Source: an uncultured archaeon (GTDB taxonomy: Archaea > Iainarchaeota > Iainarchaeia > Iainarchaeales > JAAZKV01). From it: a DNA stretch of 64,000 nucleotides. The stretch spans positions 25,192 through 89,191 of the forward strand of contig CAZUCF010000003.1 in assembly GCA_964619405.1 (NCBI GenBank), read 5' to 3'. The position numbers and the translations under genes are program-made. Positions 41,779-60,513 of the stretch are shown piece by piece. Numbering within the stretch: position 1 is the first letter of the stretch; every line of letters starts with the position of its first letter. The notes beneath the pieces are model-generated. The model searched no databases. It saw nothing but the letters and a program-made list of their open reading frames with translations, and was not told the origin of the DNA.

Positions 41779-41851
41779 TTTTTCACCAAAAAAATTTACA
41801 ATAAATTTATTACAATTATTTTAAATTAATTTTATAAACCACTTTAAAATC

Positions 41852-43138: not shown

Positions 43139-43683
43139 CTGTTATAATTATTATTTTTTATCCCTAATAAGTCTAACGCTTTTCCAATAATAAAATCTTC
43201 TAAATCACTTATCTGTTTTGGTTTTCCATAAAAACCTGGACTAAGAGGAAAAATTATCCCACCATATTTTGATATTGTCGCTAATTGTTCTAAGCATGGC
43301 CCGCTCAAAGGAGTTTCTCTTAAACCAATTATTAATGGTTTTTTGTATCGGAGCATTATGTCAGCGCACCTTGTAATGAGGGTTGATGTGTGAGCATTAG
43401 CTATTTCTGAAATTGTTTTTACTGATGCTGGAATTATTATCATTCCATCTATTAGAAAACTTGAAGAAGATATTTTTGCAGCCATATCTTTGTTTGAATA
43501 ATTTTTGGAAGCTAATTTTTTTAATTCTAAAATTTTTTTGTTTGTTTCTTGTTCAAAAACTTTTTCTGCCCACTCGCTAATAATTAAGTGTGTTTCAATT
43601 TTTTGTTTTTTTAATTCTTTTAGTAAAGCAAGTGCATAGTTTGTTCCACTCGCACCAGTTACTCCGACAATAATTTTTTGCAT
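43126..43683 (-). CDS. ubiX: flavin prenyltransferase UbiX
   Basis: IIVGVTGASG, PASVKT. About 185 aa. Confidence 0.85.
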   Translation of the reverse strand: MQKIIVGVTGASGTNYALALLKELKKQKIETHLIISEWAEKVFEQETNKKILELKKLASKNYSNKDMAAKISSSSFLIDGMIIIPASVKTISEIANAHTSTLITRCADIMLRYKKPLIIGLRETPLSGPCLEQLATISKYGGIIFPLSPGFYGKPKQISDLEDFIIGKALDLLGIKNNNYNRWKQ

Positions 43684-43717
43684 AAAAATAACCAAAACTA
43701 AAATTAATTAAAAAAAT

Positions 43718-44653
43718 TTAACTTATTTTTGCTTTTATTAGAGAATAATTTTTTGCTTGTAGTAATTCAAAGATTTTGTTTTGCTGTTGTTCTGTTTCAC
43801 ACAATATTATTACATTGCCCCCACAACCAGCACCAGTAACTTTTGCTCCCAAGCAATTCTCAAATGTAGCTGTTTTAATTATTTCTTCTGCTTCTTTGCA
43901 AGAAACACTTATTTTTCTTAGTAATTCTTGGTTCTGGTTCATTAGGTTACCAATTTCTTTTAGGCCACCAAATTTTAATTCTTGTTTTGCTTTTACAACA
44001 ATTTTTTTGTAATCTGAAAAAATTTTTTCAAATTCTTTTTTGTTTTCTTCTTTTTTCTTTGCAACCATTTCAACTATTTGTTTTGTACTCTCTTTTTTTA
44101 CTCCTGTGTCAACAACTAACAAGTATAATGTTTTAGCACACTTCAATAATTTAATATTGTTTTTCCCACCACCCTTGTTTTTTTCGAAAAGGATTGTTGT
44201 CCCATATGTTGCACAAGTATTATCTATTCCTGATGGGGTACCATGAGAAACTTTCTCGCATTCAAATGCTAAATCATTTATTTCTTCTTCTTTTAAATCC
44301 AAATTTAAGTGTTGTGATGTTGCGCGAGCCATTGCTACTGCTAGTGAAGCTGACAAACCCATTCCACCGCCAGGAACAGCGTTACCAGAAAAAGTAATTT
44401 TTATTTTGTTTAAACCATATTTTTCTATTATTGGTTTGAATATTCTGCTTTTAATGTGCTCTGGATTCTTTTTAATGTCAATTTTTTCTTTAAAGAATAC
44501 TGGGTCGTCTATAATAATCGTATCATCGTTTATCGGAGCAATTTTTATTTCAACGAACCTGTCTATTCCTGATGCTATTCCTGGTAAACCATAGACAACA
44601 AAGTGTTCTCCGAACAAAATTATTTTTGAATAACCTTTTCCTATTGCAACCAT
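43718..44653 (-). CDS. mvk: mevalonate kinase
   Basis: GHMP kinase motifs KIILFGEHFVVYG, VPGGGMGLSASLAVA, KVTGAGCGG. Confidence 0.85.
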   Translation of the reverse strand: MVAIGKGYSKIILFGEHFVVYGLPGIASGIDRFVEIKIAPINDDTIIIDDPVFFKEKIDIKKNPEHIKSRIFKPIIEKYGLNKIKITFSGNAVPGGGMGLSASLAVAMARATSQHLNLDLKEEEINDLAFECEKVSHGTPSGIDNTCATYGTTILFEKNKGGGKNNIKLLKCAKTLYLLVVDTGVKKESTKQIVEMVAKKKEENKKEFEKIFSDYKKIVVKAKQELKFGGLKEIGNLMNQNQELLRKISVSCKEAEEIIKTATFENCLGAKVTGAGCGGNVIILCETEQQQNKIFELLQAKNYSLIKAKIS

Positions 44654-44740
44654 TTTATCACTAAAAAATTAATTAAAAATTATAAACTATTTAATATTAA
44701 ATTGGTTAAAAACAATTAAAAAAAGTTGTTTTTAGATTAA

Positions 44741-45157
44741 TCAGAATTTTGGCCTAAACTTTGTTCCGTAGTGGATTACGCCTTTTTCTCCACTCTTATA
44801 AAATTTTTTGAAAACTGCTTCTACTTCTAAACCAATTTTTAGTTCTTCGTATTTGCAATCAATTATTTGTGCTGTCATTCTTGCTCCTTCTACCAAATCA
44901 ATTATTGCAATAGAGTAAGGTGTTTGTTCTGAAAAGAATTCTGGACCAGAATGTATTTGTGTGAATGAAACTATTCTTCCTTTCCCAGAGAATTGCATTT
45001 CAGCGTAATCAAGGTTTCCGCAAGTACACAAACCTTTTTTTTCAAAGTATGTTGCGCCACACTTTGTACACTTGTAACCTGTTAATTTGTATCTGTCTGA
45101 ATAATTTCTCCACCTTATTATTGAGCTTTCTCTAAACATTTTTATTACCTCTAACAT
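44741..45157 (-). CDS. DUF35 OB-fold/zinc-ribbon protein (thiolase-HMGS scaffold)
   Basis: Zinc ribbon CTKCGATYF...CTCG followed by an OB-fold region. Typically partners archaeal thiolase and HMG-CoA synthase. Confidence 0.75.
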   Translation of the reverse strand: MLEVIKMFRESSIIRWRNYSDRYKLTGYKCTKCGATYFEKKGLCTCGNLDYAEMQFSGKGRIVSFTQIHSGPEFFSEQTPYSIAIIDLVEGARMTAQIIDCKYEELKIGLEVEAVFKKFYKSGEKGVIHYGTKFRPKF

Positions 45158-45161
45158 TAAT

Positions 45162-45467
45162 TTATTTTTTGTTTGTTCTAATTATTGCTCTCCTAATTTT
45201 TTGGTTTAAACGTGGTTTTCTTAATTCTACTGCTTTTTGTCTTCTTTGTTTTGCAATTGATTCCAAATACTCTTTTTTATTTTTCTTTGTTTGAATGTGA
45301 TCACTCTGAAGATTATCAAAAATCTTTTCAGATGTTTGACTTGCTCTTTTCAAAGAATTTGCTCTCAATTTTCTTGTTATTGCAATTCTTTTTGAAATAT
45401 TCTTTGTTTTCCCTGCTAAAGCATACTTGCTTATTCTTCTTGTTCTTGGAATACTCATTTCAATCAA
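45162..45467 (-). CDS. highly basic hypothetical protein (101 aa)
   Basis: ORF between thiolase and the DUF35 gene. Arg/Lys-rich with no motif. Confidence 0.3.
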   Translation of the reverse strand: MIEMSIPRTRRISKYALAGKTKNISKRIAITRKLRANSLKRASQTSEKIFDNLQSDHIQTKKNKKEYLESIAKQRRQKAVELRKPRLNQKIRRAIIRTNKK

Positions 45468-45527
45468 ACCTCATTAAAACTTTTATTATAATGTTTTTTT
45501 TTATTTTAATATATTTTTAATTTAATA

Positions 45528-45689
45528 TTACTTCAACCTCTTAAAAACATGCACGCAAGCTGTTGCCCCGGAACGGCTTGCTCCGTTCACACGCGCACTG
45601 TCTTCGCAAGCTCGACAGAGCTTATTCAAATCAAAAAAAAAACATTTTACTTCAACCTCTTAAAAACATGCACGCAAGCTGTTGCCCCG
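45528..45689 (-). repeat. 43-bp direct duplication of the thiolase 3' end flanking a 76-nt GC-rich insert
   Basis: ttacttcaacctcttaaaaacatgcacgcaagctgttgccccg occurs identically at 45528..45570 and 45647..45689. The intervening 45571..45646 contains the hairpins gaacgg-cttgct-ccgttc and ctgtc...gacag. Confidence 0.85.
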
Positions 45690-46804
45690 CTTCCACCAAC
45701 ATTGTGTGTTACTCCCACTGTTGCATTTGTTACTTGTCTTCCTTTTGCTTCGCCCCTTAATTGCATTGTTGCTTCTATTGCTTGTTTTACTCCTGTTGCT
45801 CCAACTGGATGTCCACAAGCTTTTAAGCCACCACTCGTATTTATGGGGTGTTTTCCATCAAAGTAAGTTTCCTTGTTTTCATATAATTTGTATGCTTCGC
45901 CTTCTTTTGCAAAACCAAGTGCTTCAACAGCCATTACTTCTGCAATAGTAAAACAATCATGAACCTCTGCAAAACTAATTTCTTTTGTTGTTACGCCTGC
46001 TTGTTTGTATGCTTGTTCTGCAGCAGTTTTTCCAGCAGGAATTGCTGTTAATGTTTTTCTTCTAGCTAAGGATAATGAGTCAGTTGCTAATCCTGAACCA
46101 GTAATATAGACTTCTGAATTCATTTTTTTTGCTACTTCTTCTTTTGCAATTATTATTGTTGCAGCTCCATCAGTTACTGGAGAACAATCAAATAATCGTA
46201 GTGGGTCAGCAACCATTGTTGAAGAAAGTACTGTTTCTTTTGTTATTTCTTTTTTGAATTGACAATAAGAATTGCGTGCTCCATGAAAATGATTTTTTAC
46301 GCTAACCTCTGCAAGTAAATCTCTTGTTAAATTAGGGTATTTGTTCATGTAAGAGTTTGCTAGTAAAGCATATAACCCAGGAAAAGTTAGCCCATTAAAT
46401 CCTTCTAGTTCTTCATCACCAGCACCCATGAGTGCTGTTGTTACTTGGCTAACGTCAACATCAGTCATTTTTTCTACACCATTAACCATCACTATTTCTG
46501 CTTGTCCACTTTCTATTGCATTTATTCCTTCGCGCAGTGCTATTGCCCCTGATGCACAAGCTCCTTCTACCCTAATACTTGGTTTATCTAAATTAAGGTT
46601 TTCTGTTGCCATTGCGCCGACATGGACTTGACCTGACAAAGAATCACCTAACATGTTTCCAGTGAACATTGCGTCTATTTGCTCTGGAACAATTTTTGCG
46701 TCATTAATTGCTCTTAATTGCGAATCCAATAATAATTCTCTTAGGCCTCTATCCCAAATTTCCCCGAACTGGGTAATTCCTATTCCTAGTACTCCTACTT
46801 TCAT
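45647..46804 (-). CDS. acetyl-CoA acetyltransferase (archaeal thiolase)
   Basis: Active-site Cys VEGACASG, GHPVGATG, NVGGSGA. Confidence 0.9.
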   Translation of the reverse strand: MKVGVLGIGITQFGEIWDRGLRELLLDSQLRAINDAKIVPEQIDAMFTGNMLGDSLSGQVHVGAMATENLNLDKPSIRVEGACASGAIALREGINAIESGQAEIVMVNGVEKMTDVDVSQVTTALMGAGDEELEGFNGLTFPGLYALLANSYMNKYPNLTRDLLAEVSVKNHFHGARNSYCQFKKEITKETVLSSTMVADPLRLFDCSPVTDGAATIIIAKEEVAKKMNSEVYITGSGLATDSLSLARRKTLTAIPAGKTAAEQAYKQAGVTTKEISFAEVHDCFTIAEVMAVEALGFAKEGEAYKLYENKETYFDGKHPINTSGGLKACGHPVGATGVKQAIEATMQLRGEAKGRQVTNATVGVTHNVGGSGATACVHVFKRLK

Positions 46805-46931
46805 ACAACCGCCCAGCCGGTTGACGTCTGTATTTTGCTATTGCAAAATTTTTTGTCAACTTTATAATCATTCATAAATATTACCTAATTTTTTAAAAAA
46901 AATTCTTTTGATAAAACTTTTTTTAAAAGTT

Positions 46932-47969
46932 TTAATGTATCGTCTCCATGTGTTTTCTGTATTTTGAATAAGTTAAATATTCTTTTCTATTAACATAATC
47001 CTCTGTTGTTCTTGCTTTTTTTTGTGCTTCCAAAATTTTTTTTGTGCAAGTAAGAATAAATGCGTCTGAACCAGAACCTGAACCATAACTTGTGACTAAT
47101 ATTTTGTCTCCTGGTTTTGCTACATCAAGAACACAAGCAAGTCCTAATAACGATGAACCCGAGTAAGTGTTACCAATTTTTTTTACTATTAAACCTGTTT
47201 CTAATTGTTCTTTTGTTACACCAAATATTTTTGCAACAGCTTCTGGAAATTTTCCGTTCGGCATGTGGAATACAACAAAAGAAAAATCTTTCATTTCCAT
47301 TTTACTTTTTTCTAAAATCATTTTTGTTGCACTAACAACGTGTTTAAAGTAAGCTGGTTCTCCAGTAAATCTTCCCGCGTGTGCAGGATAAGGTTGTAAT
47401 GCTCTCCTCCAAAAATCGGGAGTGTCAGAAGTAAATGAACATGTGTAATCAATTGTTGCTATTGCTTCTTCATTGCTTCCTATTAGGAATGCGGCTCCAC
47501 CTGCTGCTGCACTATATTCAAGTGCGTTCCCTGGTTCTGCTTGACTAGTATCTGCTCCAATTGACAAACCATATTTAATCATTTTTGAATCAACTAAACC
47601 ACAATTAATTTGTATTGTTGCTGAACCAGCTTTGCACGCAAACTCTGTGTCAACAGCCATGTAATCGTTTCCTAAATTAAGAGCTTCTCCAACAATTGAT
47701 GATGATGGTTTTACAGCGTAAGGATGACTTTCTGAACCAATGTAAATTGAACCAATTTCTTTAGAATTAATTTCTGCTCTTGCAATAGCATTCCTTGCTG
47801 CTTCCGTTGAAATTGTTATTGTGTCCTCGTCTTTTCCTGGAACACTTTTTTCAGTTAAACCAAGTCCTGCTTTTATAGCACTAGGGTTATCATTATTAAC
47901 TAAAGCAATTTCTTCTGCTGTTATCCTGTATTTTGGGATATAACTTCCCCAACCAATTATGCCAGCCAT
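46932..47969 (-). CDS. hmgS: hydroxymethylglutaryl-CoA synthase
   Basis: GIIGWGSYIPKYRI start, catalytic Cys in EFACKAG, FHMPNGKF. ATG at 47969. Confidence 0.9.
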   Translation of the reverse strand: MAGIIGWGSYIPKYRITAEEIALVNNDNPSAIKAGLGLTEKSVPGKDEDTITISTEAARNAIARAEINSKEIGSIYIGSESHPYAVKPSSSIVGEALNLGNDYMAVDTEFACKAGSATIQINCGLVDSKMIKYGLSIGADTSQAEPGNALEYSAAAGGAAFLIGSNEEAIATIDYTCSFTSDTPDFWRRALQPYPAHAGRFTGEPAYFKHVVSATKMILEKSKMEMKDFSFVVFHMPNGKFPEAVAKIFGVTKEQLETGLIVKKIGNTYSGSSLLGLACVLDVAKPGDKILVTSYGSGSGSDAFILTCTKKILEAQKKARTTEDYVNRKEYLTYSKYRKHMETIH

Positions 47970-48000
47970 AAATATTACCAACTTGTAACTCTTTTTAATA

Positions 48001-49281
48001 CTAATTGCTTTTAATTTCACTCAAAATTTTTTCTGCACTCGCTTGATTCACTTCTTTTAATTCAATCATTTTTTGTGCTATTAAATCAATTTCTTTTCCT
48101 TTTGCACCTGCCCCAACAGCAATGTTTTTTGCATGTAACTTCATGTGCCCTGATTGTATTCCTGTTGTTGCTATTGCTCTTAATGCAGCAAAGTTTTGTG
48201 CTAAACCAACTGAAGCAATAATACTTGCAAGGTCAGTTACTTTTTTTAAACCAAGTATTTTCGCACTAAGTTGGGCTACTGGGTGAACTTTTATTGCACC
48301 ACCAACTAATCCTAAAGCTAATGGAATATCTATTTCACCAACCAAGTCTCCATTCTTATTTTTATAATATTTTGTTAGCGGAGAATACTTTCCTTCAAAA
48401 CAAGCAAATGCGTGTGCGCCAGCTTCTATTGCTCTAAAATCATTTCCTGTTGCAATTACTACTGCATCAATACCATTCATTATTCCTTTGTTGTGTGTTG
48501 CACACCTAAAAGGAGTTGCTTTTGCTAGCTCATACAAATCAAGTATTCTTTCAATTACTTCACTTCCTTTCATTACTCCTTTAGTGCTTTCTCCTATTTT
48601 TTCTTTTGTCCAAATTGTTTTTGATTGTGTTCTCCTATAAACTGCTAGGTTAGAAATTATTCTTGCAACATGTGTTCCACCAGAAATTTCTTCAATAGTG
48701 TGAGTTATTTTTTCAAGCATTGTATTTATTGCATTAGCACCCATAGCGTCACCCACGTTTACTAAAAGTTGTAATTCAATCATTTTCCCTCTTTCGGTTT
48801 CCAAAATATTTACTATTAAGTCACGTGGCCCGCCACCAAATTTAACCAATATTGGATCAACTTTTCTTGCTTCCAACAAAATTTTTTCTTTGTTCTCAAG
48901 AATTCTTTTTTTTGATTCTTCAACATTTTTTAAATTAATTAATTGTAATTGTCCAATCATTATTTGTTCATCACAAGAAGTTGTGAAACCACTAGAGAGT
49001 TTTGCTGCATTACTTGCTGCTGCAATAACGCTTGGTTCTTCTATAGCAAAAGGAATAACATATTCTTTCCCATTAATAACAAAATTTGTTGCTAAACCCA
49101 AGGGCAATGGAAATGTTCCAACAACATTTTCTATCATCCTGTTCGCTATCTCAAATGGTAGTGGCCCTTCTTTTTCTAAAAACAATTTTTCTTCATTTGT
49201 TAGAGAAAATTCTTTTGCAAGAATTTCTTGTCTTTCCTCAACAGTTTTTTTATAGTATCCTTCAAAACTTTTTTTATCCAT
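48001..49281 (-). CDS. hmgR: hydroxymethylglutaryl-CoA reductase (class II-like)
   Basis: About 426 aa, soluble, FEGYYKKTVEERQ start, EEPSVIAAASNAAK, DAMGANAINT, HMKLHAKN. Confidence 0.85.
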   Translation of the reverse strand: MDKKSFEGYYKKTVEERQEILAKEFSLTNEEKLFLEKEGPLPFEIANRMIENVVGTFPLPLGLATNFVINGKEYVIPFAIEEPSVIAAASNAAKLSSGFTTSCDEQIMIGQLQLINLKNVEESKKRILENKEKILLEARKVDPILVKFGGGPRDLIVNILETERGKMIELQLLVNVGDAMGANAINTMLEKITHTIEEISGGTHVARIISNLAVYRRTQSKTIWTKEKIGESTKGVMKGSEVIERILDLYELAKATPFRCATHNKGIMNGIDAVVIATGNDFRAIEAGAHAFACFEGKYSPLTKYYKNKNGDLVGEIDIPLALGLVGGAIKVHPVAQLSAKILGLKKVTDLASIIASVGLAQNFAALRAIATTGIQSGHMKLHAKNIAVGAGAKGKEIDLIAQKMIELKEVNQASAEKILSEIKSN

Positions 49282-49362
49282 AAACAACACCCCAACAAAA
49301 TAATAAAAACAAATATAATACTACAAAAACTTTTAACCAAATTTATTGAAACAAATTTTTAA

Positions 49363-50706
49363 TTATTCTTTCTCCTTGTTTTTTGCTAACTCGCTTTCAA
49401 TCAAATCTTTTTGTTCTTTCAAATCTTTTTCCTCATCAATTTTTTTTAAGTAAGCAATCATTTCTCTTGCAGCATCCCTTCCTTTTGCAATTGCTTCTAT
49501 AACTGTTTTTGGGCCGTGAACACAATCTCCTGCTGCAAAAACATTTTTTATTTTTGTTTGATTTTTTTTGTTGACCTCAATACAACCGTTTTCAATATCA
49601 CGCAAAGGTTTTTTCACTTCGTCTTTGTCGTGTTCTTGACCTATTGCCACAATCACTTTGTCTGCTTCAATAAAACCTTTTTCACCATTAGTATAACATA
49701 CTTTTGATACTTTTTCATTATTTTCACTTGATTCGAATTTGTCAACTGAATAACCAAATAAAAAGTTTACTCCTTCTTCTTCTGCTTCCAAATAATCTTT
49801 TGGTGAAACACTCTTCTCAGCGTCTCCTCTTTTTGAAATTGTAATGCAATCAACTTTTGCTCCTAATCTTATAGCACTTCTTGCAGCATCAATCCCAACA
49901 TACCCTGCTCCAATAACAACTACTTTTTCTCCTGGTGAAACTAGTGGAACATTATTCTGGTTCAAGTTAACAAGGAATTTCATTGCCGAAACAATTCCTT
50001 TTAAATCTGCACCAAGAATATTTAATTTTTTTGATGAACCAACTCCTGTTCCAACAAAAACAACATCAAATTTTTTTGATAACTCTTCTATTGATTCCTC
50101 AGCTATTTTTGAATTGGGTTCAAAATCAATTCCTAGTTCGTGCAACATTGTTAATTCTCTTGAAACAGTTTCTTTTGGCAAACGAAATTCTGGAACACCA
50201 TATTTTATTACACCCCCAAAAGAATTTGACACCTCAAACACACTAACATTTAGTCCTTCTAAAGCAAGGTAAGCTGCTGCTGTTAACCCTGAGGGGCCAG
50301 AACCAATAATAGCAACTTTTTTGCCATTTAGTTTTCTTCCTTCTGGTAGCGACGCTTTGTCCCCAATAAATCTTTCCAAACCACCAATGTTAATTGGGCC
50401 TTCTTTTGTTTTTGATAGAATGCATGAACCCTCGCATTGTTTTTCCTGTTGGCAAATCCTACCACAAATACTTGGGAAAAAATTTTTTTCCCTGATTATT
50501 TCTGCAGCGTCTTGTAATCTCCCTTCTTTAAAAGCTTTAATGAAAGCAGGAATATTTACTCTTGCTGGGCAACCCTCAACGCACTTTGGTTCCTTGCAAT
50601 TCAAACAACGATTCGCTTCTCGCATTGCTTGTTCTTCATTAAAACCAATTTCTACTTCTTTAAAAGAATTTTTTCTATCATCAATACTGATTTTTGGAAT
50701 CTGCAT
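49363..50706 (-). CDS. glutamate synthase small subunit-like NAD(P)H oxidoreductase (GltD/SudA family)
   Basis: N-terminal Fe-S Cys clusters (CLNCKEPKCVEGCP; CGRICQQEKQCEGSC) and two dinucleotide folds (IIGSGPSG, VIGAGYVG). Confidence 0.8.
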   Translation of the reverse strand: MQIPKISIDDRKNSFKEVEIGFNEEQAMREANRCLNCKEPKCVEGCPARVNIPAFIKAFKEGRLQDAAEIIREKNFFPSICGRICQQEKQCEGSCILSKTKEGPINIGGLERFIGDKASLPEGRKLNGKKVAIIGSGPSGLTAAAYLALEGLNVSVFEVSNSFGGVIKYGVPEFRLPKETVSRELTMLHELGIDFEPNSKIAEESIEELSKKFDVVFVGTGVGSSKKLNILGADLKGIVSAMKFLVNLNQNNVPLVSPGEKVVVIGAGYVGIDAARSAIRLGAKVDCITISKRGDAEKSVSPKDYLEAEEEGVNFLFGYSVDKFESSENNEKVSKVCYTNGEKGFIEADKVIVAIGQEHDKDEVKKPLRDIENGCIEVNKKNQTKIKNVFAAGDCVHGPKTVIEAIAKGRDAAREMIAYLKKIDEEKDLKEQKDLIESELAKNKEKE

Positions 50707-50997
50707 TATCACACCAAGCCTTTGAAAACAAAATAAATAATTTCTCACCAGAAAATGTTTCTCTTTAATTCAAACACTCTATTAAACAAAGGTTAAGTCA
50801 ATATATAAAAACCTTTCCAAAAGACGAAAATTGTTTCGTTGATTGACGATTAATATTTTTTTAATGAATTCTAATTAAAATCAAATAAAATAAAAAAAAT
50901 AAAATTAATGATAACCAAAAAAAAACAAAAAAAGATTTTAAAAGCATTTTTTGTTTCAAAGCAAATGAATTTTTTTTTTTGTTAAACAACAAATTTT

Positions 50998-52425
50998 TTA
51001 TGTGCACCCAGTGATAATACCACTTTCAATTGAGACTTGACAAGTAGTAGAACAATCACTTGCTGTACAAAGCCAATAACTACTAGTATCATCTATGCCT
51101 TGGTTTCCACTTGATGACTTAAAGCTAGTGCCAGTTTGTATATCCCCACTCGCATAAATCCCACCAGTAGCATTTACAGCATAAGTATTATCAGTTAATT
51201 GAACACTATTAGCACCATCACTAAAATTACTAGTGCCTGAAACATTTAATGCGTATGTTCCATCATGCATAACAACATTAGTTGTTCCACTATTAAATTG
51301 ACTCATTCCAGTAGCATTTACAGCATAAGTACCATCAGCCAAAGTAATATTATTACTTGAACCATCTTCTAAATAACCAGCATAACCATTAACACCCAAA
51401 CTAGCTTTATAACTACTATTATAAAATATTCCTGCTGCCGAACCATCAGAAAGTATTGCTATATTACTATTTGGGTCCACACTATAAATGTTTTGTGTTC
51501 CATCTAATATTTTTAAGGTAGAAAACCCATCAGTAAACAAACCATACTCTGTCCCATTATATAATTCAACAGCATCACTACCCACATTCAAATAACTTGT
51601 GTACAAACCATATTCTGTGTAAATTCCGTCAGCCGGGTCATCAAACCAATCAAAAACGGTTTCATCGTTTGTACTAACTAATCGTGTTGCCATAATTCTG
51701 TGTGTTTTTATTGGATTTTGGGTTTCCCAAAAATAACTCTCCCCTCCAAAATCTCCTTTTAAAAATGAAACATCCCCACCAATACTAATTTCTCCAAACA
51801 TCCCAGTTCCTGTTGTAGTTAAACCATTAGTACCTAAATTAACATCAGTAGTAGCACCAGTATAAGTAACATAACCACTCAAATCGGGTTGTGTGCTTAA
51901 ACACTCTTGCACGTTATTTGCTTCAATACAAATGAGTGAGTTTGATGCCCCTTCAAAAAAAAGTGTTCCTGAAGTAATACTACTTTTTTTGCCAGGCATT
52001 AAGTCAAAGCCACCACTATCAAAAATTGATTCAGAATTTCCTACTTGGTAATGAAAGAAAACATCGCTGTAAGAGCATTCTCCTTCACAATCCCCTATGT
52101 TTGGAATAAAAACTGTTTTCTTTTCTTCTGGTAAAAAAATCATTGGTTCATCCACTAAAACTTGTTTTGAACCAATAGAATAACCAGCAAAATAAATTGG
52201 GTGTAATAAATTATTCTTCATAACAATTAATGCGTCACCATTATTATCAACAATAGCCTCAAGAATTGCTATGGAACCAACTCCCCACTCTTGTTTGTTT
52301 TGCATTGTAGAAACTGGTCCAAAAAAACCAAAAAAATTTGTGATTAAAGCAGTAGCAATTAAAGCAATTGTTATAACCGCACCAATTATTGCTAAGTACT
52401 CTATTGTTGATTGTGCTCTTGACAT
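50998..52425 (-). CDS. type IV pilin-like (class III signal peptide) secreted protein, 475 aa
   Basis: N-terminus MSRAQSTIEYLAIIGAVITIALIATALI is paralogous to the DGR target N-terminus. The C-terminal region is Gly/Thr/Ser/Asn-rich and repetitive. Confidence 0.6.
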   Translation of the reverse strand: MSRAQSTIEYLAIIGAVITIALIATALITNFFGFFGPVSTMQNKQEWGVGSIAILEAIVDNNGDALIVMKNNLLHPIYFAGYSIGSKQVLVDEPMIFLPEEKKTVFIPNIGDCEGECSYSDVFFHYQVGNSESIFDSGGFDLMPGKKSSITSGTLFFEGASNSLICIEANNVQECLSTQPDLSGYVTYTGATTDVNLGTNGLTTTGTGMFGEISIGGDVSFLKGDFGGESYFWETQNPIKTHRIMATRLVSTNDETVFDWFDDPADGIYTEYGLYTSYLNVGSDAVELYNGTEYGLFTDGFSTLKILDGTQNIYSVDPNSNIAILSDGSAAGIFYNSSYKASLGVNGYAGYLEDGSSNNITLADGTYAVNATGMSQFNSGTTNVVMHDGTYALNVSGTSNFSDGANSVQLTDNTYAVNATGGIYASGDIQTGTSFKSSSGNQGIDDTSSYWLCTASDCSTTCQVSIESGIITGCT

Positions 52426-52613
52426 TACACCACATTAATAATAACAATTTAAAGTATAATAATTTTTCTAAAGAAAAAAAGCAAGGAAAAAAATTTAAAA
52501 AATATTATTAAAAAACAAAAAATAAATATTGTTTATAAAAAACAAAAATTAATTCAATTAAAATTAATGCTTTCAAAAAAATTATTATAAATAGAATTAT
52601 TTTAAACACAAAT

Positions 52614-53666
52614 TTATTGTTGCAACCAATCTTTTAATTTTCCAAGAACCACAAATTCTTTTTTTTGTAAATCAATAGTATTTTTGCAACCAGATAAAAA
52701 CGAAGCTATTTCCATTTCTTTCTTAAAATTTTTTAAATAACTTTTTACTCCTAAAAAACCATTTTTTTGTTGTTCTTTTAAAATTGGCAAAGCATTTCCA
52801 ACCATGTCAGCTCCAAGAACAATTGATTTTACTGCTTCAAGACCATTTCTTATTCCACCAGAAGCAACAATCTTTTTGTCAGAATGAGAAATAGCATTTT
52901 TTGTTTCTATAACACTTACTGCTGTTGGAACCCCTATATCCCGAAACATTTCTCCAAAACTTTTTTTGTGCCTTAACGCATCTACTCTTGTCCAACTTGT
53001 GCCCCCAGCACCTTCTACATCAATTGCTTTTATTTTTGTTTTAGCTAAGTGTTTTGCAATTTCAAAATTTATTCCATGCCCCACTTCTTTTACATATACT
53101 GGAACAGAAATTTCTTCAGAAAACAAGCCTATTTTTTCTATTAAATTTGAAAAATTTGTGTCGCCCTCTGGTTGCATTGCTTCTTGTGCTGAATTAATGT
53201 GTATTGCTAGAGCATCAGCTTCTATTTTTTGTAATACTTCATTTATTTTTTTAGGAGAATAATTATTTAATTGAGCAACGCCAAGGTTTCCTGCAAGAAA
53301 AATGTCGGGTGCTACGCCTCTAACATAATAAGTGTTTGTTAGTCCTGGTTTTTCAATCATTGCACGCATGCTTCCAAGCCCCATGCCAACACCTATTTCT
53401 TGACACGCTTTCGCAATATCTAAGTTAACTTTTTTTGATATTTGTGCTCCACCCGTAATAGCTGAAACCAAGAAAGGAAAAGAAAAATTTTTTCCAAGAA
53501 AATTTGTTGATAAATCTACTTCTCCTAAATCAATTTCTGGTAAAGAAAAATAATCAAGTTCAACATATTCAAGCAAAGTCGTTTTATCTTTAAATGAAAC
53601 ATCTTTTTGTGTACACAAGTTTAAATGATCTACTTTTCTTTTTTCTGTTTGTGATACCATAGACAA
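52614..53666 (-). CDS. fni: type 2 isopentenyl-diphosphate delta-isomerase
   Basis: KRKVDHL start, FMN TIM-barrel, ASGGIRNG. Confidence 0.9.
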   Translation of the reverse strand: MSMVSQTEKRKVDHLNLCTQKDVSFKDKTTLLEYVELDYFSLPEIDLGEVDLSTNFLGKNFSFPFLVSAITGGAQISKKVNLDIAKACQEIGVGMGLGSMRAMIEKPGLTNTYYVRGVAPDIFLAGNLGVAQLNNYSPKKINEVLQKIEADALAIHINSAQEAMQPEGDTNFSNLIEKIGLFSEEISVPVYVKEVGHGINFEIAKHLAKTKIKAIDVEGAGGTSWTRVDALRHKKSFGEMFRDIGVPTAVSVIETKNAISHSDKKIVASGGIRNGLEAVKSIVLGADMVGNALPILKEQQKNGFLGVKSYLKNFKKEMEIASFLSGCKNTIDLQKKEFVVLGKLKDWLQQ

Positions 53667-53740
53667 GTAAAGAATTAAACTTATTTAAATTGTTTTGTTT
53701 ACTCAAAAGTTTTAAAACTTGTAACAAACAATACTTATTC

Positions 53741-54670
53741 ATGAACAAGGCAGGGCAACAAAAACTAAAACAAAGATTGCTTGATAAGAAACACAGCATT
53801 GTAACACATAATTGGTTAGTTAATGGTGAGCAAAAAGAGCGAACTATTTCAAGAAGAATTGTTAGCAACGAAAAAATGCGGGACAGAGTGAACAGAGTAA
53901 TGCGTGCTAGTTTTTCTGCAAAAACAAGACAAAGAAACAAAAAAAGTTTTAAAGAAGGTAATAACGCAATAATTTTTTTTAACAAAAAACGGGGCCATGC
54001 TGTAAAGGTTTTTGGGCAAGGCTCAATAGGAGACCATTATTCTAAAACAAGGACTTTTCAACAAAATTTATCTTATTGTCTTGCAATGATTAATGGTCAA
54101 ACGATTTCAGAACTAGATTCTAACATTAAAAAGATTAGGGCGCGAGTAAAAAGAATGAAGTCAAGTAAAATTAATCCAAATAGTTTTGATCCAAAACCAG
54201 AGACAATAATTAGACAATTAATCCAAGAAAAAAAAGAGGTTTTGGTTTTACAACAAGAAAAACTAAAGGATTCTTTTTGGAATAGTAAGCCATTAAAAAA
54301 AGGGTATATTCCTTTTGTTTATTCTATAAGAACACCAAAAATATTTTCTGAACACAGATTAAAAAGTAGAGAATACGCTGTTTCAATGGAGTATGTTAGA
54401 GGGCCAAATTTAAGTGAGTTGTTAGAAGCATTAGATAAAAAAGTTAGAACCAAGACTGGTAGGAACGCTGAATTGTTTTTGAAACAAAACAAATTAGATA
54501 AAGAAGAAACCAGAGTAAAAATTACTGAGATAAGCAAGGCCATAAATAATTCTGTTTTACCAAGAACACAAAATACTGTTACCCCTTTTATTCCAAGATT
54601 AGATTCTTTTATTGTTGAAGGAATTGATCGGTTTGGGAATTTTAAACTGGTTCTTGTTGATAATGCATAA
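53741..54670 (+). CDS. hypothetical protein
   Basis: Basic N-terminus. A possible kinase-like segment (SMEYVRGPNL) is too weak to call. Confidence 0.35.
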   Translation: MNKAGQQKLKQRLLDKKHSIVTHNWLVNGEQKERTISRRIVSNEKMRDRVNRVMRASFSAKTRQRNKKSFKEGNNAIIFFNKKRGHAVKVFGQGSIGDHYSKTRTFQQNLSYCLAMINGQTISELDSNIKKIRARVKRMKSSKINPNSFDPKPETIIRQLIQEKKEVLVLQQEKLKDSFWNSKPLKKGYIPFVYSIRTPKIFSEHRLKSREYAVSMEYVRGPNLSELLEALDKKVRTKTGRNAELFLKQNKLDKEETRVKITEISKAINNSVLPRTQNTVTPFIPRLDSFIVEGIDRFGNFKLVLVDNA

Positions 54671-54761: not shown

Positions 54762-57239
54762 TCAAATTTTTCTGTCAACTAAATATTCAGCAAATTTTTT
54801 TAGGATTTTTTTTGCATTACTTTCTTTTAAAACAGAATCAATTTCGCTCCAAGCTTCTTCAACCATTTTTTCTGCAATTTTTTTTGAGTAATCAATCCCA
54901 TCGTATTTATTTATTATATCAAGTGCTTCTTGTAATTCTTTTTCTTTTGTTGTGTGAGAATCAAGAATTTCTATTAACCTTTTCTTGTCTTCTTTAGAAG
55001 CAACTTCAAGTGTTCTTATCACAATCAAAGTTCTTTTTCCCTCATGAATGTCTCCACCAATAGAACCTTTTTTTTCTTTAAATTCTTGTTCAGTTAACTC
55101 TAGAATATCGTCTTGTATTTGGAAACCCACTCCAATAATTTGGCCAAAATTCCCAAGTGCTTCAAACTGTTTTTTTGTTGAATTACCAATTATTGCTCCT
55201 AATTGGCAAGCAAATTTTGTTAGAACCCCTGTTTTTGATAAACACATATTTAAGTATTGTGACTCGTTAGGAGTAAAGCCACCATGGTGCCAAGCAATAT
55301 CCCAAACTTGCCCAGAACAAACCCTAAGCATTTCTTTAATATACAAATCATAAATTTGTAATTTTTTTTCATTAGAAAAAGAAAAATCATTATTCATTAT
55401 TTTTATCATTGGCCAATAATACATTATTGTTCCTGTGTTAACAGCAGTGTCAACACCAAATTTTTTGTGAGTGCAGGGTTCTCCTCTTCTTGATTTTGAA
55501 TCATCTTCCACATCATCTTGCATCAAAGTATTGTGGACTATTATCCCATTACAAATATATGAGTGTGTTTCTTCTACTTCAATATCAAATGTTTGAATTG
55601 GCTCTCCTTCTATTATTTCTCTTACTTCAACAAAGCCTATTTTTTCAAAATCAGTTTGTTCTGGCATGAAAGGCACTTTTTCTTTTTGTCTTAAAGTTAC
55701 TTGTCTAACAAATTGTCTTGATAATCTTTGAGTGTTAGTTGTTGATTCTGAACCAATTTCTTGAGCAACTCTTTCTGTTGAACTAACATCAAAACCAAAA
55801 AGAACGGATTCTTTTTTTATTGAATTAGAAAAGTGCTTGTTTGAAATAATTTTTTTATTAATGTTGCTTGTAACAAAACCAAGGCTATCTAATAACATTT
55901 TCATTTGAGTCATTAGCTCTTCGTTTGCACAATCAAAACACACGTACCCTTTTTTGTTAATGTGTCCATCTGAATCAATATATCCTTTAATAAAAGCTAA
56001 TTTGTGTTCTCTTGGAAGAGAAAAAACCCAATTAGGAATATTTATTTCTAAATGATTTTTTTTTAAACCCAAGTAATCAAATAAATTTGCTAGTGCAGTT
56101 GAACAAAGAGTAATTCTTTCTTTATACTGCGATGGCTCAGATTCAAATACTTTCTTTGCTAGCAAAACATATTCTTCCCTGCCTTCAATATTTTTTGGTA
56201 AGCATAATTCAACCTTGTCTTTCGCAATATGACCATCACCAATTATTAAACCACAAATTTGTGCTAGTTCTTTAGTCATCATTGTTGGAATAACATATCT
56301 ATCTTTAAAATTTTTTTCAAAAAAAGGAATTTCTGGAAGAACTCCTTCATCAGAATACACATTTTTTCCAACAACTAACAAATCACCTTTTTCCAATTTT
56401 TTTGCCCTAACCCATTTAAACTCTATTTTTGGTTGTTCGAACACACATTGTTTTTTTTCAAAATTATTCCAGTCTAAACCATATTCTTCAACTAAATAAT
56501 CAACGAACTCTTCAGGCAAGTAACAATTTTTATAACCCCTAATTGAATTAAAAATTGCTCTTGAATTTAAACCACCAAAATCACTTTTTTTAAATGCTTC
56601 TTTAACTAATGAAAAAGTTGATTGTTTTTTGGCACGAGCTTTTTCTTCAATTAGACACAATGTTTTTTTGTTTACTTTATAATGAAATTTTTGTTCTTTT
56701 TGAACTGATAAAAACGGGTGCTCTTCAGTTACACTAATAGTTCTATTATTACTAATTACTTTTAAAACTTTTTTTACACCATTGTCGTGCTTAAAAGAAA
56801 CTCTTCTTTCTTTTATTCTACCAAATTTGTCAACTGACAAAACATAATCTCCGATATTAACATCTTTAATTTTTTTTGGCGAGCCATCAGCCATCCAAAC
56901 TAAAGCATTTTCGTCAACACAACCATTGTGAATTAACTCTACTATTGGTGCTAATTTTAAACCATCGCCCCATTTTCCACCAACCGATTCTGCACAAATA
57001 CAAGTTAGTATTGGCCTAAATCTTTTTCCTCCTCTGTCAAGCAAATCCCAAATTGGTTCATTACAACCAGCCGAGTAAGCATTTAAATCTAATTCAAAAA
57101 CAGTTTTTCCTAATGCATTTTCAACCCATTCTTTTATTGCTTTTCTGGGAATAAATTTTTCTAATTCTTTTTCAATAATCGGAACTTCTTTTTTTAAAAA
57201 GGATTTTATATCCATTTTTGTGTCTTTTTCTGAAACCAT
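54762..57239 (-). CDS. idsA: geranylgeranyl diphosphate synthase (polyprenyl synthetase), interrupted by an intein
   Basis: Exteins carry GGKRFRP, ELIHNG|TLMQDDVEDD (first Asp-rich motif) and FQIQDDILE (second). The mature size would be 361 aa. Confidence 0.85.
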   Translation of the reverse strand: MVSEKDTKMDIKSFLKKEVPIIEKELEKFIPRKAIKEWVENALGKTVFELDLNAYSAGCNEPIWDLLDRGGKRFRPILTCICAESVGGKWGDGLKLAPIVELIHNGCVDENALVWMADGSPKKIKDVNIGDYVLSVDKFGRIKERRVSFKHDNGVKKVLKVISNNRTISVTEEHPFLSVQKEQKFHYKVNKKTLCLIEEKARAKKQSTFSLVKEAFKKSDFGGLNSRAIFNSIRGYKNCYLPEEFVDYLVEEYGLDWNNFEKKQCVFEQPKIEFKWVRAKKLEKGDLLVVGKNVYSDEGVLPEIPFFEKNFKDRYVIPTMMTKELAQICGLIIGDGHIAKDKVELCLPKNIEGREEYVLLAKKVFESEPSQYKERITLCSTALANLFDYLGLKKNHLEINIPNWVFSLPREHKLAFIKGYIDSDGHINKKGYVCFDCANEELMTQMKMLLDSLGFVTSNINKKIISNKHFSNSIKKESVLFGFDVSSTERVAQEIGSESTTNTQRLSRQFVRQVTLRQKEKVPFMPEQTDFEKIGFVEVREIIEGEPIQTFDIEVEETHSYICNGIIVHNTLMQDDVEDDSKSRRGEPCTHKKFGVDTAVNTGTIMYYWPMIKIMNNDFSFSNEKKLQIYDLYIKEMLRVCSGQVWDIAWHHGGFTPNESQYLNMCLSKTGVLTKFACQLGAIIGNSTKKQFEALGNFGQIIGVGFQIQDDILELTEQEFKEKKGSIGGDIHEGKRTLIVIRTLEVASKEDKKRLIEILDSHTTKEKELQEALDIINKYDGIDYSKKIAEKMVEEAWSEIDSVLKESNAKKILKKFAEYLVDRKI
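55530..56921 (-). mobile_element. intein (464 aa) with LAGLIDADG endonuclease in GGPP synthase
   Basis: Cys1 (CVDENALVWMADGS), C-terminal CNGIIVHN, +1 Thr. LAGLIDADG motifs are ICGLIIGDGH and FIKGYIDSDGH. Confidence 0.85.
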
Positions 57240-57408: not shown

Positions 57409-60400
57409 TTATTTTTCGCTTAATTGTTCTTCAAGTATCTTATTGAGTAATTCTAAAAATTCATCTAATCTTTCAGATGGTATTTTCATTCCGGCTGCTA
57501 TTGAATTGTGCACAATTAAACCATTCGCCATAAAATTTTTTGTTTTTGGGATAGATAAGTCAAGAAAACCATTTTTATACCCCAAACTTTTTTTTGATTT
57601 AATCTCATAAAATGTTAAATGCTGGCTATTAACTATTTTGTCTAACCACTTAATTTTATTTAAACAATCTATGGGTATTTTGTACTTATTTTTTAAAATC
57701 GGATAAATAAAATATTTATTTAAAGAATGATAATTCATTCTTTTAGTTTTGATTCTTGAATATAACACATTATAATCAAATAATTCTCTTGAAATATTAT
57801 TTTGTTTTATAAATTTTCGCATAAACCCATAAGTTATTGGTGAAAACAACATTGAATTTCTTTTTTTCTTTGACTGTTTTTTTATTATTTTTTTTAACAA
57901 AATATCTTTTTTCCCATTTTGTGTAAAACCTATTTTCTTTTGAAATATTTTAATGGAATCAAAATCAGTAATATCTAAAACAAATGATCTTTTTGAATTA
58001 AATTTATTTGTTTTTTTTGTTTTAACTTCTCTAAAATTAGATTTTACTCCAAATCTCAAAAGAAGTATTTGAACTGTTTTAAGTAAATATTCATCCACTA
58101 GCCTTATCATAATAAATCTATCAAAAACACAGGCTTCTGCATCGAACAAACCACTAATATAACTTGCTAAAATATTATTTTTCGAAATCATTATTTTTTT
58201 TGGGACATTTAAATTACCAGTCAGTAATTTGAGTTCGGGAAAATTTTTTTCAAAAAATCGGCACAAATCCGCAGAATAAATACGTATTTTTTTATAATTA
58301 CCCATATCAATTAAAGTTGATTTTAAAGAAAAATTGTTTAAAATTGATTTTTGAAATTTTTCTAAAATTTTTCTATCTGATTCTTTAGCTTCAATTCTTT
58401 TTTTACCAATATTTCCGTCACTTTGAATATAACCAAGAAGCCAAGCTATTTCGAAATTTAGTTTGTTTGAATTACAAACAAACTTTTTTTCAATAAATTG
58501 TGAATAAAAATACTTTTTTGATATTTTGAGTAATGAAAGATACTCAATTAAATGACTTTCAATAATTTTGTGTGACCTAAACTGTTCTAAAGCATTAATA
58601 CTACACAAATTATTTTCAAATGACAAGAGTTTGTTTGTTAATTCTTTTTTTGATAATTTTAATTTTAAACGTTTATTTTTTAAAAAGTTCGAACTTTCTT
58701 TCTTTAAATAAATAAATTTATTATTTATTAATTTAATATCTTGTCCCGCAAAAGGAATTTTTTTGACACCCAAAACAAAATCTTTTTCCAACAAATCTTT
58801 AGCTTTTACTTCAACTAAACTAAAATTTTCAAATTTAAAAAAACGGTGTTCTTCTGAAGAAATTATTTCTGTATTTTTTGTTTTAAATGAAATGGTTTTT
58901 TTCTTTTTTGATACAAAAACTTTATCGCATTTTGAATTTATTAAATTAAAATTAGAATTACTTAACAAATAGTCTGTTTTTATTATTTCTGATATTTTAC
59001 AAATTTCCCCTCTTTTTTTTTGAACTAGTGTGTCAGGATGCAAACAATGGCCACCACCTTGAACTCCAATAATCTCTTTTTCTATTTGTTTAAAGGCTTT
59101 ACCTAAATTAAGGCCTTTTCTAATGAGTGCTTGGGTGCCTCTACCAGAAACTTTTATTGTATTATCTTCGTTTCGTGCTAAAGCGATTATTGGTTTGTCT
59201 TCATTTATTACTGAACCATATAACATGCCAGCAATTATTCCTACAAGAGAATCTTGTATTGCGTCTTTTGCATCAAAAAAATAAAATGACTTTTTTTCTT
59301 CAACACCATTAGCATTAACAAATTCAATTCCTTTTCTTAATTCTCTTTTGTGTTCTTCTATAAGCAATAATAATTTTCCATAATAACTATTTGAACTCCT
59401 ATTCCCCAAACAAACTTGTAATGCTACTTCTGGCATAGCATGTCTACCTGCAGAATTACAAGCTGTTGCAAATTCTTTTGCATCGCGCAAAGGACTTTTT
59501 AATAATTCTTTTTCAAGAGTATAAACTTCTCCAATCAAAGATTGTATTTTCCATTCGGGAACCCCTTGTTCTGACAAATGAATTATTAGAGCAGAAGAGA
59601 GTACTTGCTTTTGTTCTATTGAAAGATCTTCATATGAAAGCCACTCATCATTAAAAGAGTCTTTTAATGGAATATTATTTTGTTTCAAAAAAGCAACACA
59701 ATTTTCTTCGCTTGCTGTTAACCCAGGAATAATTGGTGAAGAAGAAAACATTAGAAATGATACTAGTGGCCGAGAAATTCTACCATATAATCTCAAATCA
59801 TTTTTAACAAAAAGAATTTTTTCTTTTACAGCAATATCAATTATTTTTCTATTCAAACCAATTAGTTTTCCTGAAAAATCTTGCATGTCCCCAACAGCAC
59901 CAACAATAGCCAAACCAGATAAATCAACATTTTTTTTATTTAATGCAAGAGCAAAAAAGAATGCTGTTCCAGAACCGCTTAACTCTTTTCCGCCATCAAT
60001 ACCATAAAATAATGGGTTAATGTGCCGCGGAATTTTTGTTCCAAGAGTAATCAAAAAATCGTTTTCAGATTCTTTATTTTCAATACTTTGATTTTTTTTT
60101 CCTTGCGTAACGGAATCGGGCTCACCACAAGACCAGATCGCCCGTACGGAATCGGGCTCACCACAAGACCGGATCGCCCGTACGGAATCGGGCTGGTGGT
60201 GATCCAAAATAAATAAATTTTTTTTGCCCAAACCATTAATTAAATGGTCTAATTGGCCCGAACCAAAATCTACAAACAAATATGTTTTTCCAAGTTTTTT
60301 TATTTCATCAATGTTTTCTTTGTATAATTGTTTTAAACACAAGTGCGTTACTTTTTTTCCTTCTCTTTCCAACGCTTTTATTGCTATTGCTCCACTTGTA

Positions 60401-60513
60401 ATACCATCAGCGTCATAATGATGAATAACCACTATTGAATCACTATGTTTTATCTCACAAGCAAATTTTTCTAAATCTAAAAAAAAATTTTCTTCAAACC
60501 TTTGTTCAACCAT
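57409..60513 (-). CDS. RecJ/GAN-like DHH-family nuclease, interrupted by an intein and carrying a 24-aa repeat insertion
   Basis: DHH motifs HHYDADG, DFG and LDHH. The DHHA1 motif GGGH|SIAAG is split by the intein. The mature size would be 520 aa. Confidence 0.8.
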   Translation of the reverse strand: MVEQRFEENFFLDLEKFACEIKHSDSIVVIHHYDADGITSGAIAIKALEREGKKVTHLCLKQLYKENIDEIKKLGKTYLFVDFGSGQLDHLINGLGKKNLFILDHHQPDSVRAIRSCGEPDSVRAIWSCGEPDSVTQGKKNQSIENKESENDFLITLGTKIPRHINPLFYGIDGGKELSGSGTAFFFALALNKKNVDLSGLAIVGAVGDMQDFSGKLIGLNRKIIDIAVKEKILFVKNDLRLYGRISRPLVSFLMFSSSPIIPGLTASEENCVAFLKQNNIPLKDSFNDEWLSYEDLSIEQKQVLSSALIIHLSEQGVPEWKIQSLIGEVYTLEKELLKSPLRDAKEFATACNSAGRHAMPEVALQVCLGNRSSNSYYGKLLLLIEEHKRELRKGIEFVNANGVEEKKSFYFFDAKDAIQDSLVGIIAGMLYGSVINEDKPIIALARNEDNTIKVSGRGTQALIRKGLNLGKAFKQIEKEIIGVQGGGHCLHPDTLVQKKRGEICKISEIIKTDYLLSNSNFNLINSKCDKVFVSKKKKTISFKTKNTEIISSEEHRFFKFENFSLVEVKAKDLLEKDFVLGVKKIPFAGQDIKLINNKFIYLKKESSNFLKNKRLKLKLSKKELTNKLLSFENNLCSINALEQFRSHKIIESHLIEYLSLLKISKKYFYSQFIEKKFVCNSNKLNFEIAWLLGYIQSDGNIGKKRIEAKESDRKILEKFQKSILNNFSLKSTLIDMGNYKKIRIYSADLCRFFEKNFPELKLLTGNLNVPKKIMISKNNILASYISGLFDAEACVFDRFIMIRLVDEYLLKTVQILLLRFGVKSNFREVKTKKTNKFNSKRSFVLDITDFDSIKIFQKKIGFTQNGKKDILLKKIIKKQSKKKRNSMLFSPITYGFMRKFIKQNNISRELFDYNVLYSRIKTKRMNYHSLNKYFIYPILKNKYKIPIDCLNKIKWLDKIVNSQHLTFYEIKSKKSLGYKNGFLDLSIPKTKNFMANGLIVHNSIAAGMKIPSERLDEFLELLNKILEEQLSEK
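57505..59046 (-). mobile_element. intein (514 aa) with LAGLIDADG endonuclease in the RecJ-like protein
   Basis: Cys1 (CLHPDTLVQKKRG), C-terminal ANGLIVHN, +1 Ser. LAGLIDADG motifs are LLGYIQSDGN and YISGLFDAEA. Confidence 0.85.
60111..60205. repeat. GC-rich 36-bp tandem repeat (2 full units plus a partial) inside the RecJ-like CDS
   Basis: cggaatcgggctcaccacaagacc[a/g]gatcgcccgta at 60111 and 60147, with a partial copy at 60183. About 61% GC. Encodes VRAIRSCGEPDS/VRAIWSCGEPDS directly after LDHHQPDS. Confidence 0.9.

Follow-up and report, generated by a model that had tools for sequence, protein, structure and literature searches.

A putative homing intein in the active-site helix of a GGPPS-like prenyl synthase from an uncultured Iainarchaeota archaeon

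In an uncultured archaeon of the Iainarchaeota (GenBank assembly GCA_964619405.1), a polyprenyl synthase gene is interrupted by what is very probably a class-1 homing intein: an element that would be spliced out of an IdsA- or geranylgeranyl diphosphate synthase (GGPPS)-like enzyme, on whose removal that enzyme would depend, and that would be mobile. The genome is a low-GC DPANN one, and named homologues likewise make Iainarchaeota/Diapherotrites its most likely group. The gene lies in a 64,000-nucleotide stretch of contig CAZUCF010000003.1 (positions 25,192 to 89,191), which we call the window and to which all coordinates below refer.

The intein and its predicted splicing pathway

The gene (54762..57239, minus strand) is one uninterrupted frame encoding an 825-residue precursor, of which residues 107–570 form a 464-residue intein at 55530..56921. 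The first intein residue is Cys (CVDENALVW...), directly behind ...APIVELIHNG, and the intein end, ...NGIIVHN, abuts the start of the C-terminal flank (C-extein), TLMQDDVEDDSKSRRG (TLMQDDVEDD...). An earlier note on this DNA had given the same coordinates, length, ELIHNG/TLMQDDVEDD junctions and LAGLIDADG strings, and these match exactly. The parts of the precursor are:

54762..57239 (-): precursor, polyprenyl synthase plus intein; PF00348 in two stretches flanking PF14890 and PF14528
56922..57239 (-): N-extein, residues 1–106, ending ...APIVELIHNG; aligns with the N-terminal part of intein-free 361-residue orthologues
55530..56921 (-): intein, residues 107–570; Pfam and TIGRFAM intein models over their cut-offs, best Foldseek matches to homing-endonuclease-associated inteins
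56883..56921 (-): block A, CVDENALVWMADG; Cys1 codon at 56919..56921, Cys1 invariant in 24/24 and 15/15 same-site inteins
56718..56729 (-): block B, T-E-E-H (TxxH); His174 invariant and Thr171 at least 90% conserved in the 24-homologue alignment
56481..56669 (-): helical sub-domain (predicted), following block B and preceding the endonuclease domain; AlphaFold helices 191–203, 208–218, 226–233 and 243–253
56229..56267 (-): LAGLIDADG motif 1, LAQICGLIIGDGH (ICGLIIGDGH), catalytic Asp335; G334-D335-G336 invariant in the 24- and 15-sequence alignments
55962..56000 (-): LAGLIDADG motif 2, LAFIKGYIDSDGH (FIKGYIDSDGH), catalytic Asp424; D424 invariant, PF14528 on precursor residues 412–463
55530..55589 (-): blocks F and G, FDIEVEETHSYICNGIIVHN, last residues His569-Asn570; TIGR01443 over its cut-off, aligns with blocks F/G of the PI-MtuI mini-intein
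55527..55529 (-): Thr+1 (Thr571), first C-extein residue from the junction reading, position -4 of the chain-length-determining region
54762..55529 (-): C-extein, residues 571–825 plus stop codon; PF00348 profile positions 51–250
55503..55517 (-): first Asp-rich motif (FARM), DDVED, residues 575–579; D575, D576, E578 and D579 invariant in 24 homologues, aligns with DDIMD of the Pyrococcus horikoshii GGPPS 1wy0
55098..55112 (-): second Asp-rich motif (SARM), DDILE; Q709, D710 and D711 invariant in 24 homologues

Four curated models match the excised 464 residues above their cut-offs: PF14890 Intein_splicing (53.7 bits, cut-off 35.8), PF14528 LAGLIDADG_3 (46.4 bits, cut-off 22.5), TIGR01445 intein_Nterm (31.5 bits, cut-off 24.5) and TIGR01443 intein_Cterm (28.7 bits, cut-off 15.6). 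The class-1 residue set is complete, comprising Cys1, the block-B TxxH, the C-terminal His-Asn and Thr+1. All 24 homologues, with identities down to 36%, retain Cys1, the block-B His, His-Asn, a Thr or Ser at +1 and the catalytic Asp of either LAGLIDADG motif (a distant homologue, P0159, has Cys at +1), and the same alignment holds D552, H559, H569 and N570 of blocks F/G and K429, G431, K447 and D451 of the endonuclease domain invariant. The catalytic residues of the exteins, FARM and SARM included, are likewise invariant across the 24 intein-bearing homologues. In each respect checked, the sequence is that of a canonical class-1 intein in which a double-motif LAGLIDADG homing endonuclease is nested. 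A Hint domain of the bacterial intein-like or Hedgehog type was ruled out by the His-Asn terminus, the +1 nucleophile and the position inside a host protein.

A sequence search of the PDB with the intein gave weak matches only (PI-MtuI blocks F/G and the PI-PkoII LAGLIDADG region), so a fold search was needed. The whole precursor was modeled with AlphaFold2 from the alignment of 24 homologues; the model has a mean predicted local distance difference test score (pLDDT) of 83, with confident helices in both intein and synthase. Its best Foldseek match in the PDB is the TliVMA intein 7qsu (E 1.7e-15, TM score 0.71 on the target), and 7qss, PhoVMA 7qst, PI-SceI and PI-PfuI, all homing-endonuclease inteins, are among the further top matches; together with the four profiles, these folds bear out the Hint/LAGLIDADG assignment made in the earlier note. 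The extein part of the model finds the P. horikoshii GGPPS 1wy0 (E 1.1e-11, root-mean-square deviation 2.7 over 249 columns). The pLDDT falls below 50 at residues 103–108 and 571–592, that is, at both junctions and the FARM helix, which would fit a helix interrupted by the insertion. The predicted helical sub-domain at 56481..56669 is possibly a DNA-recognition module; a related intein, that of the MptE-like P0164, matches Pfam HTH_3 at the equivalent place.

The proposed splicing steps follow established intein chemistry. After translation of the 825-residue precursor, the Hint domain would catalyze an N-S acyl shift to give a thioester at Gly106-Cys107, and trans-esterification would move the N-extein onto the hydroxyl of Thr571. 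Cyclization of Asn570, aided by His569, would then release the 464-residue intein, and an O-N shift would form the Gly-Thr peptide bond, restoring the helix ...ELIHNG-TLMQDDVED... of a 361-residue enzyme.

The host enzyme and its occupied and empty alleles

Removal of the intein in silico yields a 361-residue polyprenyl synthase with both Asp-rich motifs, DDVED and DDILE. Against PF00348, the precursor scores 190.5 bits in two stretches, while the spliced product scores 211.9 bits in a single stretch covering profile positions 4–250 of 251. The insertion falls between Gly(-5) and Thr(-4), four residues upstream of FARM, and the 'immediately before' of the earlier note is to be read as this distance. 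Alignment to 1wy0 (ELIHN-Y-SLVHDD) and 5jfq (ETVHN-F-TLVHDD) identifies the interrupted helix as the one holding the chain-length-determining positions, with Thr+1 as the conserved Ser/Thr of the FARM helix. It is usual for inteins that an active-site hydroxyl serves as the +1 nucleophile. Since the insertion lies within this chain-length/FARM helix, the unspliced precursor is expected to be inactive, in which case splicing would be a prerequisite for isoprenoid chain elongation by the product of this gene.

The name 'GGPP synthase' (for geranylgeranyl diphosphate, GGPP), used in the earlier note, stands as far as the polyprenyl synthase family (PF00348) is concerned, but GGPP itself is not established as the product. 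For IdsA_Meth and GGPP_syn, the best NCBIfam models, scores of 251.7 and 194.1 bits stay below the respective cut-offs of 468 and 500, position -5 is Gly in place of the aromatic residue that restricts archaeal type-I enzymes to C20, and the core region resembles eukaryotic type-III GGPPS, with HN(S/A)SL.IDDIED.S..RRG and GQ..DI.W shared in alignments to 2dh4 and 9e2h. For these reasons we label the host only 'GGPPS-like'. It would be a short-chain trans-prenyl diphosphate synthase of the IdsA/GGPPS-like kind, for which GGPP is a plausible product; the type-III-like motifs make a C20 product possible.

Intein-free orthologues support the junctions as drawn. A database search with the 361-residue product returned 824 proteins at E <= 1e-20; the best matches are mostly without an intein, exactly 361 residues long and up to 86% identical, and the named intein-free sequences at the top belong to Candidatus Iainarchaeum, Diapherotrites or 'archaeon'. 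When 113 intein-free exteins are aligned with the 24 intein-bearing ones, the junction shows no gap, so the exteins do rebuild a contiguous synthase, and the spliced junction string IVELIHNGTLMQDDVEDDS occurs verbatim in seven intein-free clusters. A survey for empty and occupied alleles, as had been suggested, found both. A metagenome contig from JGI (L001) carries an empty allele in the gene order of the window: DHH protein, prenyl synthase, unknown open reading frame (ORF), type-2 isopentenyl diphosphate isomerase (IDI-2), GltD-like protein, HMG-CoA reductase, HMG-CoA synthase, thiolase and mevalonate kinase. Its sequence on either side of the insertion point is GTAGAACTAGTTCATAACGGA and ACTTTAATGCAAGATGATGTT, and over the 90 nucleotides spanning the junction, the window minus its intein is identical to it at 74/90 positions. 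Two other contigs (L002 and L003) have the occupied allele with the same downstream neighbors as L001 and the window.

The same-site intein recurs in other sequences. Searching with the full precursor gave 24 clusters at 90% identity (817–831 residues, 36–100% identical), all with the intein at the same codon. An exhaustive HMMER search of 1.84 billion cluster representatives, with just the intein as query, yielded 3572 relatives (24 at E <= 1e-30), and every top match spanning the whole intein was a prenyl synthase. Among 149 newly returned representatives (P0149–P0297), a regular-expression scan found 11 with the same-site FARM junction; the N-terminal junction between -5 and -4 was found in 10/11 of these distant representatives, P0158 being N-terminally truncated. 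These 11 representatives of 50% clusters include canonical HNF/SLIHDD type-I enzymes and one with Cys+1, and their inteins measure 412–513 residues. Same-site occupancy thus totals at least 24 clusters at 90% identity plus 11 divergent 50%-cluster representatives, and named carriers are Iainarchaeota/Diapherotrites and Micrarchaeota.

Across genomes, the prenyl synthase intein was present in at least 7 of 185,579 GTDB species representatives, a lower bound because contigs were scanned with the second LAGLIDADG pattern only; most of the at least 80 loci found were unrelated inteins. The carriers include four labeled 'uncultured archaeon', 'archaeon WB02no2_33_12', Ca. Iainarchaeum Zod_Metabat.1151 and Ca. 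Micrarchaeia s1_sp2_bin.3, and a truncated match lay in a bin labeled 'bacterium AUK254'. The intein was not found in a scan of viral contigs, which held two distant intein-free prenyl synthases only; a viral carrier is not indicated. In other hosts, the nearest relatives are inteins of SufB, phage portal proteins, subtilases and MptE-like proteins.

The pattern of occupancy suggests recent mobility of some inteins. In a similarity tree of exteins, empty alleles stand scattered between the 24 occupied ones, and occupied and empty exteins can be as close as 96% (P0005/P0077), 94% (P0009/P0056 and P0006/P0082) or 93% (P0012/P0048). In two pairs, the inteins are more alike than their own exteins (P0003/P0004, 86 versus 77%; P0005/P0006, 90 versus 81%). 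The window intein is nearest to that of P0003 (66%), and the window extein to those of P0002, P0010 and P0011 (80–81%). In bootstrapped neighbor-joining (NJ) trees, the intein clade of P0003 and P0004 has 100% support versus 0% in the extein tree, and the P0002 intein groups with 03–07 (77%) while its extein groups with 01 and 10–13 (100%). Such a distribution fits a long-resident element that may still be moving among related lineages, as in a homing cycle. The endonuclease would cut intein-free alleles at the conserved DNA encoding ELIHNG/TLMQDD, and recombinational repair of the cut would place a copy of the intein there; homing of this kind would account for the interleaving of occupied and empty alleles among close relatives.

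Genomic setting and alternative readings

The prenyl synthase gene stands at the end of an 18-kb archaeal mevalonate-pathway cluster, all on the same strand:

39396..40208 (-): isopentenyl phosphate kinase
40594..41778 (-): AcnX-like dehydratase homologue
41852..43138 (-): UbiD-family decarboxylase
43126..43695 (-): UbiX
43718..44653 (-): mevalonate kinase
45647..46804 (-): thiolase
46932..48020 (-): HMG-CoA synthase
48001..49290 (-): HMG-CoA reductase
52614..53666 (-): IDI-2; TIGR02151, 361.8 bits, above cut-off

That a single cluster (39396..53666, minus strand) holds a near-complete mevalonate pathway of the archaeal type is itself notable in a DPANN-like genome. Within the 64-kb window, no further ORF for a prenyl synthase was found. 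From the cluster context, the host enzyme would feed isoprenoid, probably lipid, synthesis. The earlier note had made enzyme activity strictly dependent on splicing and the enzyme a supplier of lipid precursors, and with the mevalonate cluster and the sole prenyl synthase ORF of the window behind them, both are reasonable inferences.

Several observations weigh against a mobile, splicing-dependent intein. Divergence of intein and extein is correlated (r = 0.85), and in most pairs, the intein is the more diverged of the two. GC content hardly differs (intein 0.29, extein 0.31, window 0.29), and GC content at third codon positions (GC3) in the intein matches the host. Splits supported at >=90% bootstrap in both NJ trees never conflict, for which reason horizontal transfer is not claimed as proven; given the correlated divergence and matching GC, much of the intein's history could be vertical descent with loss. 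In addition, splicing and DNA cleavage are both inferred from conserved residues, the Gly at position -5 departs from the Tyr/Phe of archaeal type-I GGPPS, and an intein-free paralogue outside the window is possible. The tree, divergence and composition data would all suit an element whose splicing is intact and whose endonuclease is dead, persisting only vertically, since an essential active-site helix would not survive imprecise deletion, with its patchiness due to occasional precise loss. We consider this unlikely, while giving it real weight: both catalytic Asp residues and K429, G431, K447 and D451 are invariant down to 36% identity, which is unexpected in a decaying domain, and neither the two pairs with inteins closer than their exteins nor empty alleles at 93–96% extein identity to occupied ones sit easily with vertical descent alone.

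Alternatively, the intein may have been co-opted as a post-translational switch, with conditional splicing (in response to redox state, temperature or substrate) gating prenyl diphosphate supply. Within a complete mevalonate/isoprenoid cluster, the host is the final enzyme, the insertion sits in the active-site helix, and conditional splicing of other archaeal inteins, such as that of RadA, is discussed in a 2016 survey (PMC4760082). If such a switch existed, some DPANN archaea would control their supply of membrane-lipid precursors post-translationally, as with a valve, but this seems improbable to us: the 24-homologue alignment shows neither a second conserved cysteine nor any other sensor feature, most close orthologues lack the intein, and the endonuclease, typical of a selfish element, has been kept. 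The interrupted gene might instead be a non-functional relic, with prenyl diphosphate supplied by an intein-free synthase elsewhere in the genome or by the host of the DPANN cell; many DPANN archaea rely on hosts for lipids, and our data cover 64 kb of the genome. We give this still less credence, since neither the 825-codon frame nor any splicing residue is damaged, the 24 intein-bearing homologues have FARM, SARM and other extein residues in invariant form, and the gene lies within an intact mevalonate cluster with no paralogue in the window; a pseudogene was likewise rejected. An assembly chimera or annotation artifact, for which we found no supporting point, has a negligible probability: at least 35 independent protein clusters, drawn from assemblies in NCBI, JGI, ENA and Logan, and at least 7 GTDB genomes show this arrangement with the insertion at the identical codon.

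A spliced homing intein remains our preferred interpretation, and it is not the only intein in the window. The earlier note had counted it as the second in a metabolic gene, and the other, in PorB (pyruvate:ferredoxin oxidoreductase beta subunit; 34687..36699, minus strand), is indeed related. The PorB intein has 367 residues (about 35197..36297) and lies between ...TDNEAYMN and TGIQRSGAT; its host matches NF008819 (361 bits in two stretches), and porA and porC adjoin it. The neighboring DHH/DHHA1 (RecJ/GAN-like) gene (57409..60513, minus strand) harbors a third, a LAGLIDADG intein of 514 residues (57505..59046) that follows the GGGH motif (GGGH/CLHPDTLV...LIVHN/SIAAG); the orthologue in the syntenic L001 contig has 477 residues and no intein. 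The 5' part of the DHH gene also contains a 36-bp tandem repeat (60110..60194; 2.4 copies, 97% matches), which encodes the repeated peptide GEPDSVRAI(R/W)SC and is far GC-richer than its 29%-GC surroundings.

Between the prenyl synthase and IDI-2, on the opposite strand, lies a 326-residue ORF without a family match (53690..54670, plus strand), and L001 has a 312-residue ORF at the same position and orientation. Farther away, a 415-residue ORF (29695..30942, minus strand) is weakly similar to group II intron reverse transcriptases/maturases (TIGR04416, 96 bits, cut-off 300) and, also weakly, to defense-associated reverse transcriptases. A 1216-residue ORF (15144..18794, minus strand) has no Pfam match at E <= 0.001; L002/L003 have a 1270-residue ORF with no Pfam match on record. 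Rfam and tRNA scans of the window found nothing.

The earlier note had considered a polyprenyl synthase an undescribed or very rare intein host. Rarity is borne out by the GTDB count, and our full-text literature searches found no paper mentioning an intein in a prenyl synthase. The element is not unique, however: the same-site clusters listed above are already public, and some of the sequences carry the JGI pipeline label 'geranylgeranyl pyrophosphate synthase/intein/homing endonuclease'. The novelty is therefore the host protein, the kind of element being known already. In the text of the 2016 intein-host survey, about 75% of archaeal inteins fall in COG categories L and F (replication/repair and nucleotide metabolism), and prenyl or isoprenoid enzymes are not mentioned (PMC4760082).

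With an intein that recurs, and is apparently mobile, in the active-site helix of an isoprenoid-elongation enzyme, the host range of inteins extends to lipid-precursor metabolism. The occupied and empty alleles form a natural set in which the homing cycle of uncultivated DPANN archaea could be studied. The interrupted genes are also an annotation hazard: at about 820 residues and with a split Pfam match, they could be miscalled in pathway surveys that assess the capacity of DPANN archaea for making their own lipids. As a Thr+1 intein with a Gly-1 junction, the element is a candidate for protein engineering.

Comparison with known inteins and prenyl synthases

Among solved inteins, the best fold matches are TliVMA/PhoVMA (7qsu, 7qss, 7qst), PI-SceI (1vde, 1lws), PI-PfuI (1dq3) and PI-PkoII (2cw7). 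Like the window intein, these have a Hint domain split by a double-motif LAGLIDADG endonuclease, with Cys1, TxxH and a C-terminal His-Asn followed by the nucleophile. Their hosts are V-ATPases, ribonucleotide reductases or DNA polymerases, whereas that of the window intein is a prenyl synthase; identity in structural alignments is only 13–17%, and the window intein has the extra predicted helical sub-domain after block B.

Outside prenyl synthases, the nearest sequence relatives are the inteins of SufB (P0153, 198.7 bits) and PorB; the PorB intein of the window scores 186 bits against the prenyl synthase intein family profile. SufB and PorB inteins likewise sit at cofactor- or substrate-binding motifs, but in other hosts and at other insertion sites, and the PorB intein lacks profile positions 77–166, which correspond to the helical sub-domain of the prenyl synthase intein.

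For the spliced extein, the best solved-structure match is the archaeal type-I GGPPS of P. horikoshii (1wy0, 159.6 bits). Both 1wy0 and 5jfq (G. acetivorans) share the ELIHN-x-(S/T)L..DD helix with the window enzyme, whereas position -5 is Tyr or Phe in the former two and Gly in the latter. A small residue at -5 is instead found in type-III GGPPS from yeast, human and fungi (2dh4, 2q80, 9e2h), which also share the FARM form DD(I/V)ED.S..RRG and the GQ..DI.W motif with the window enzyme. By score, the window extein is closer to the archaeal enzyme (160 bits) than to type-III GGPPS (91 and 84 bits).

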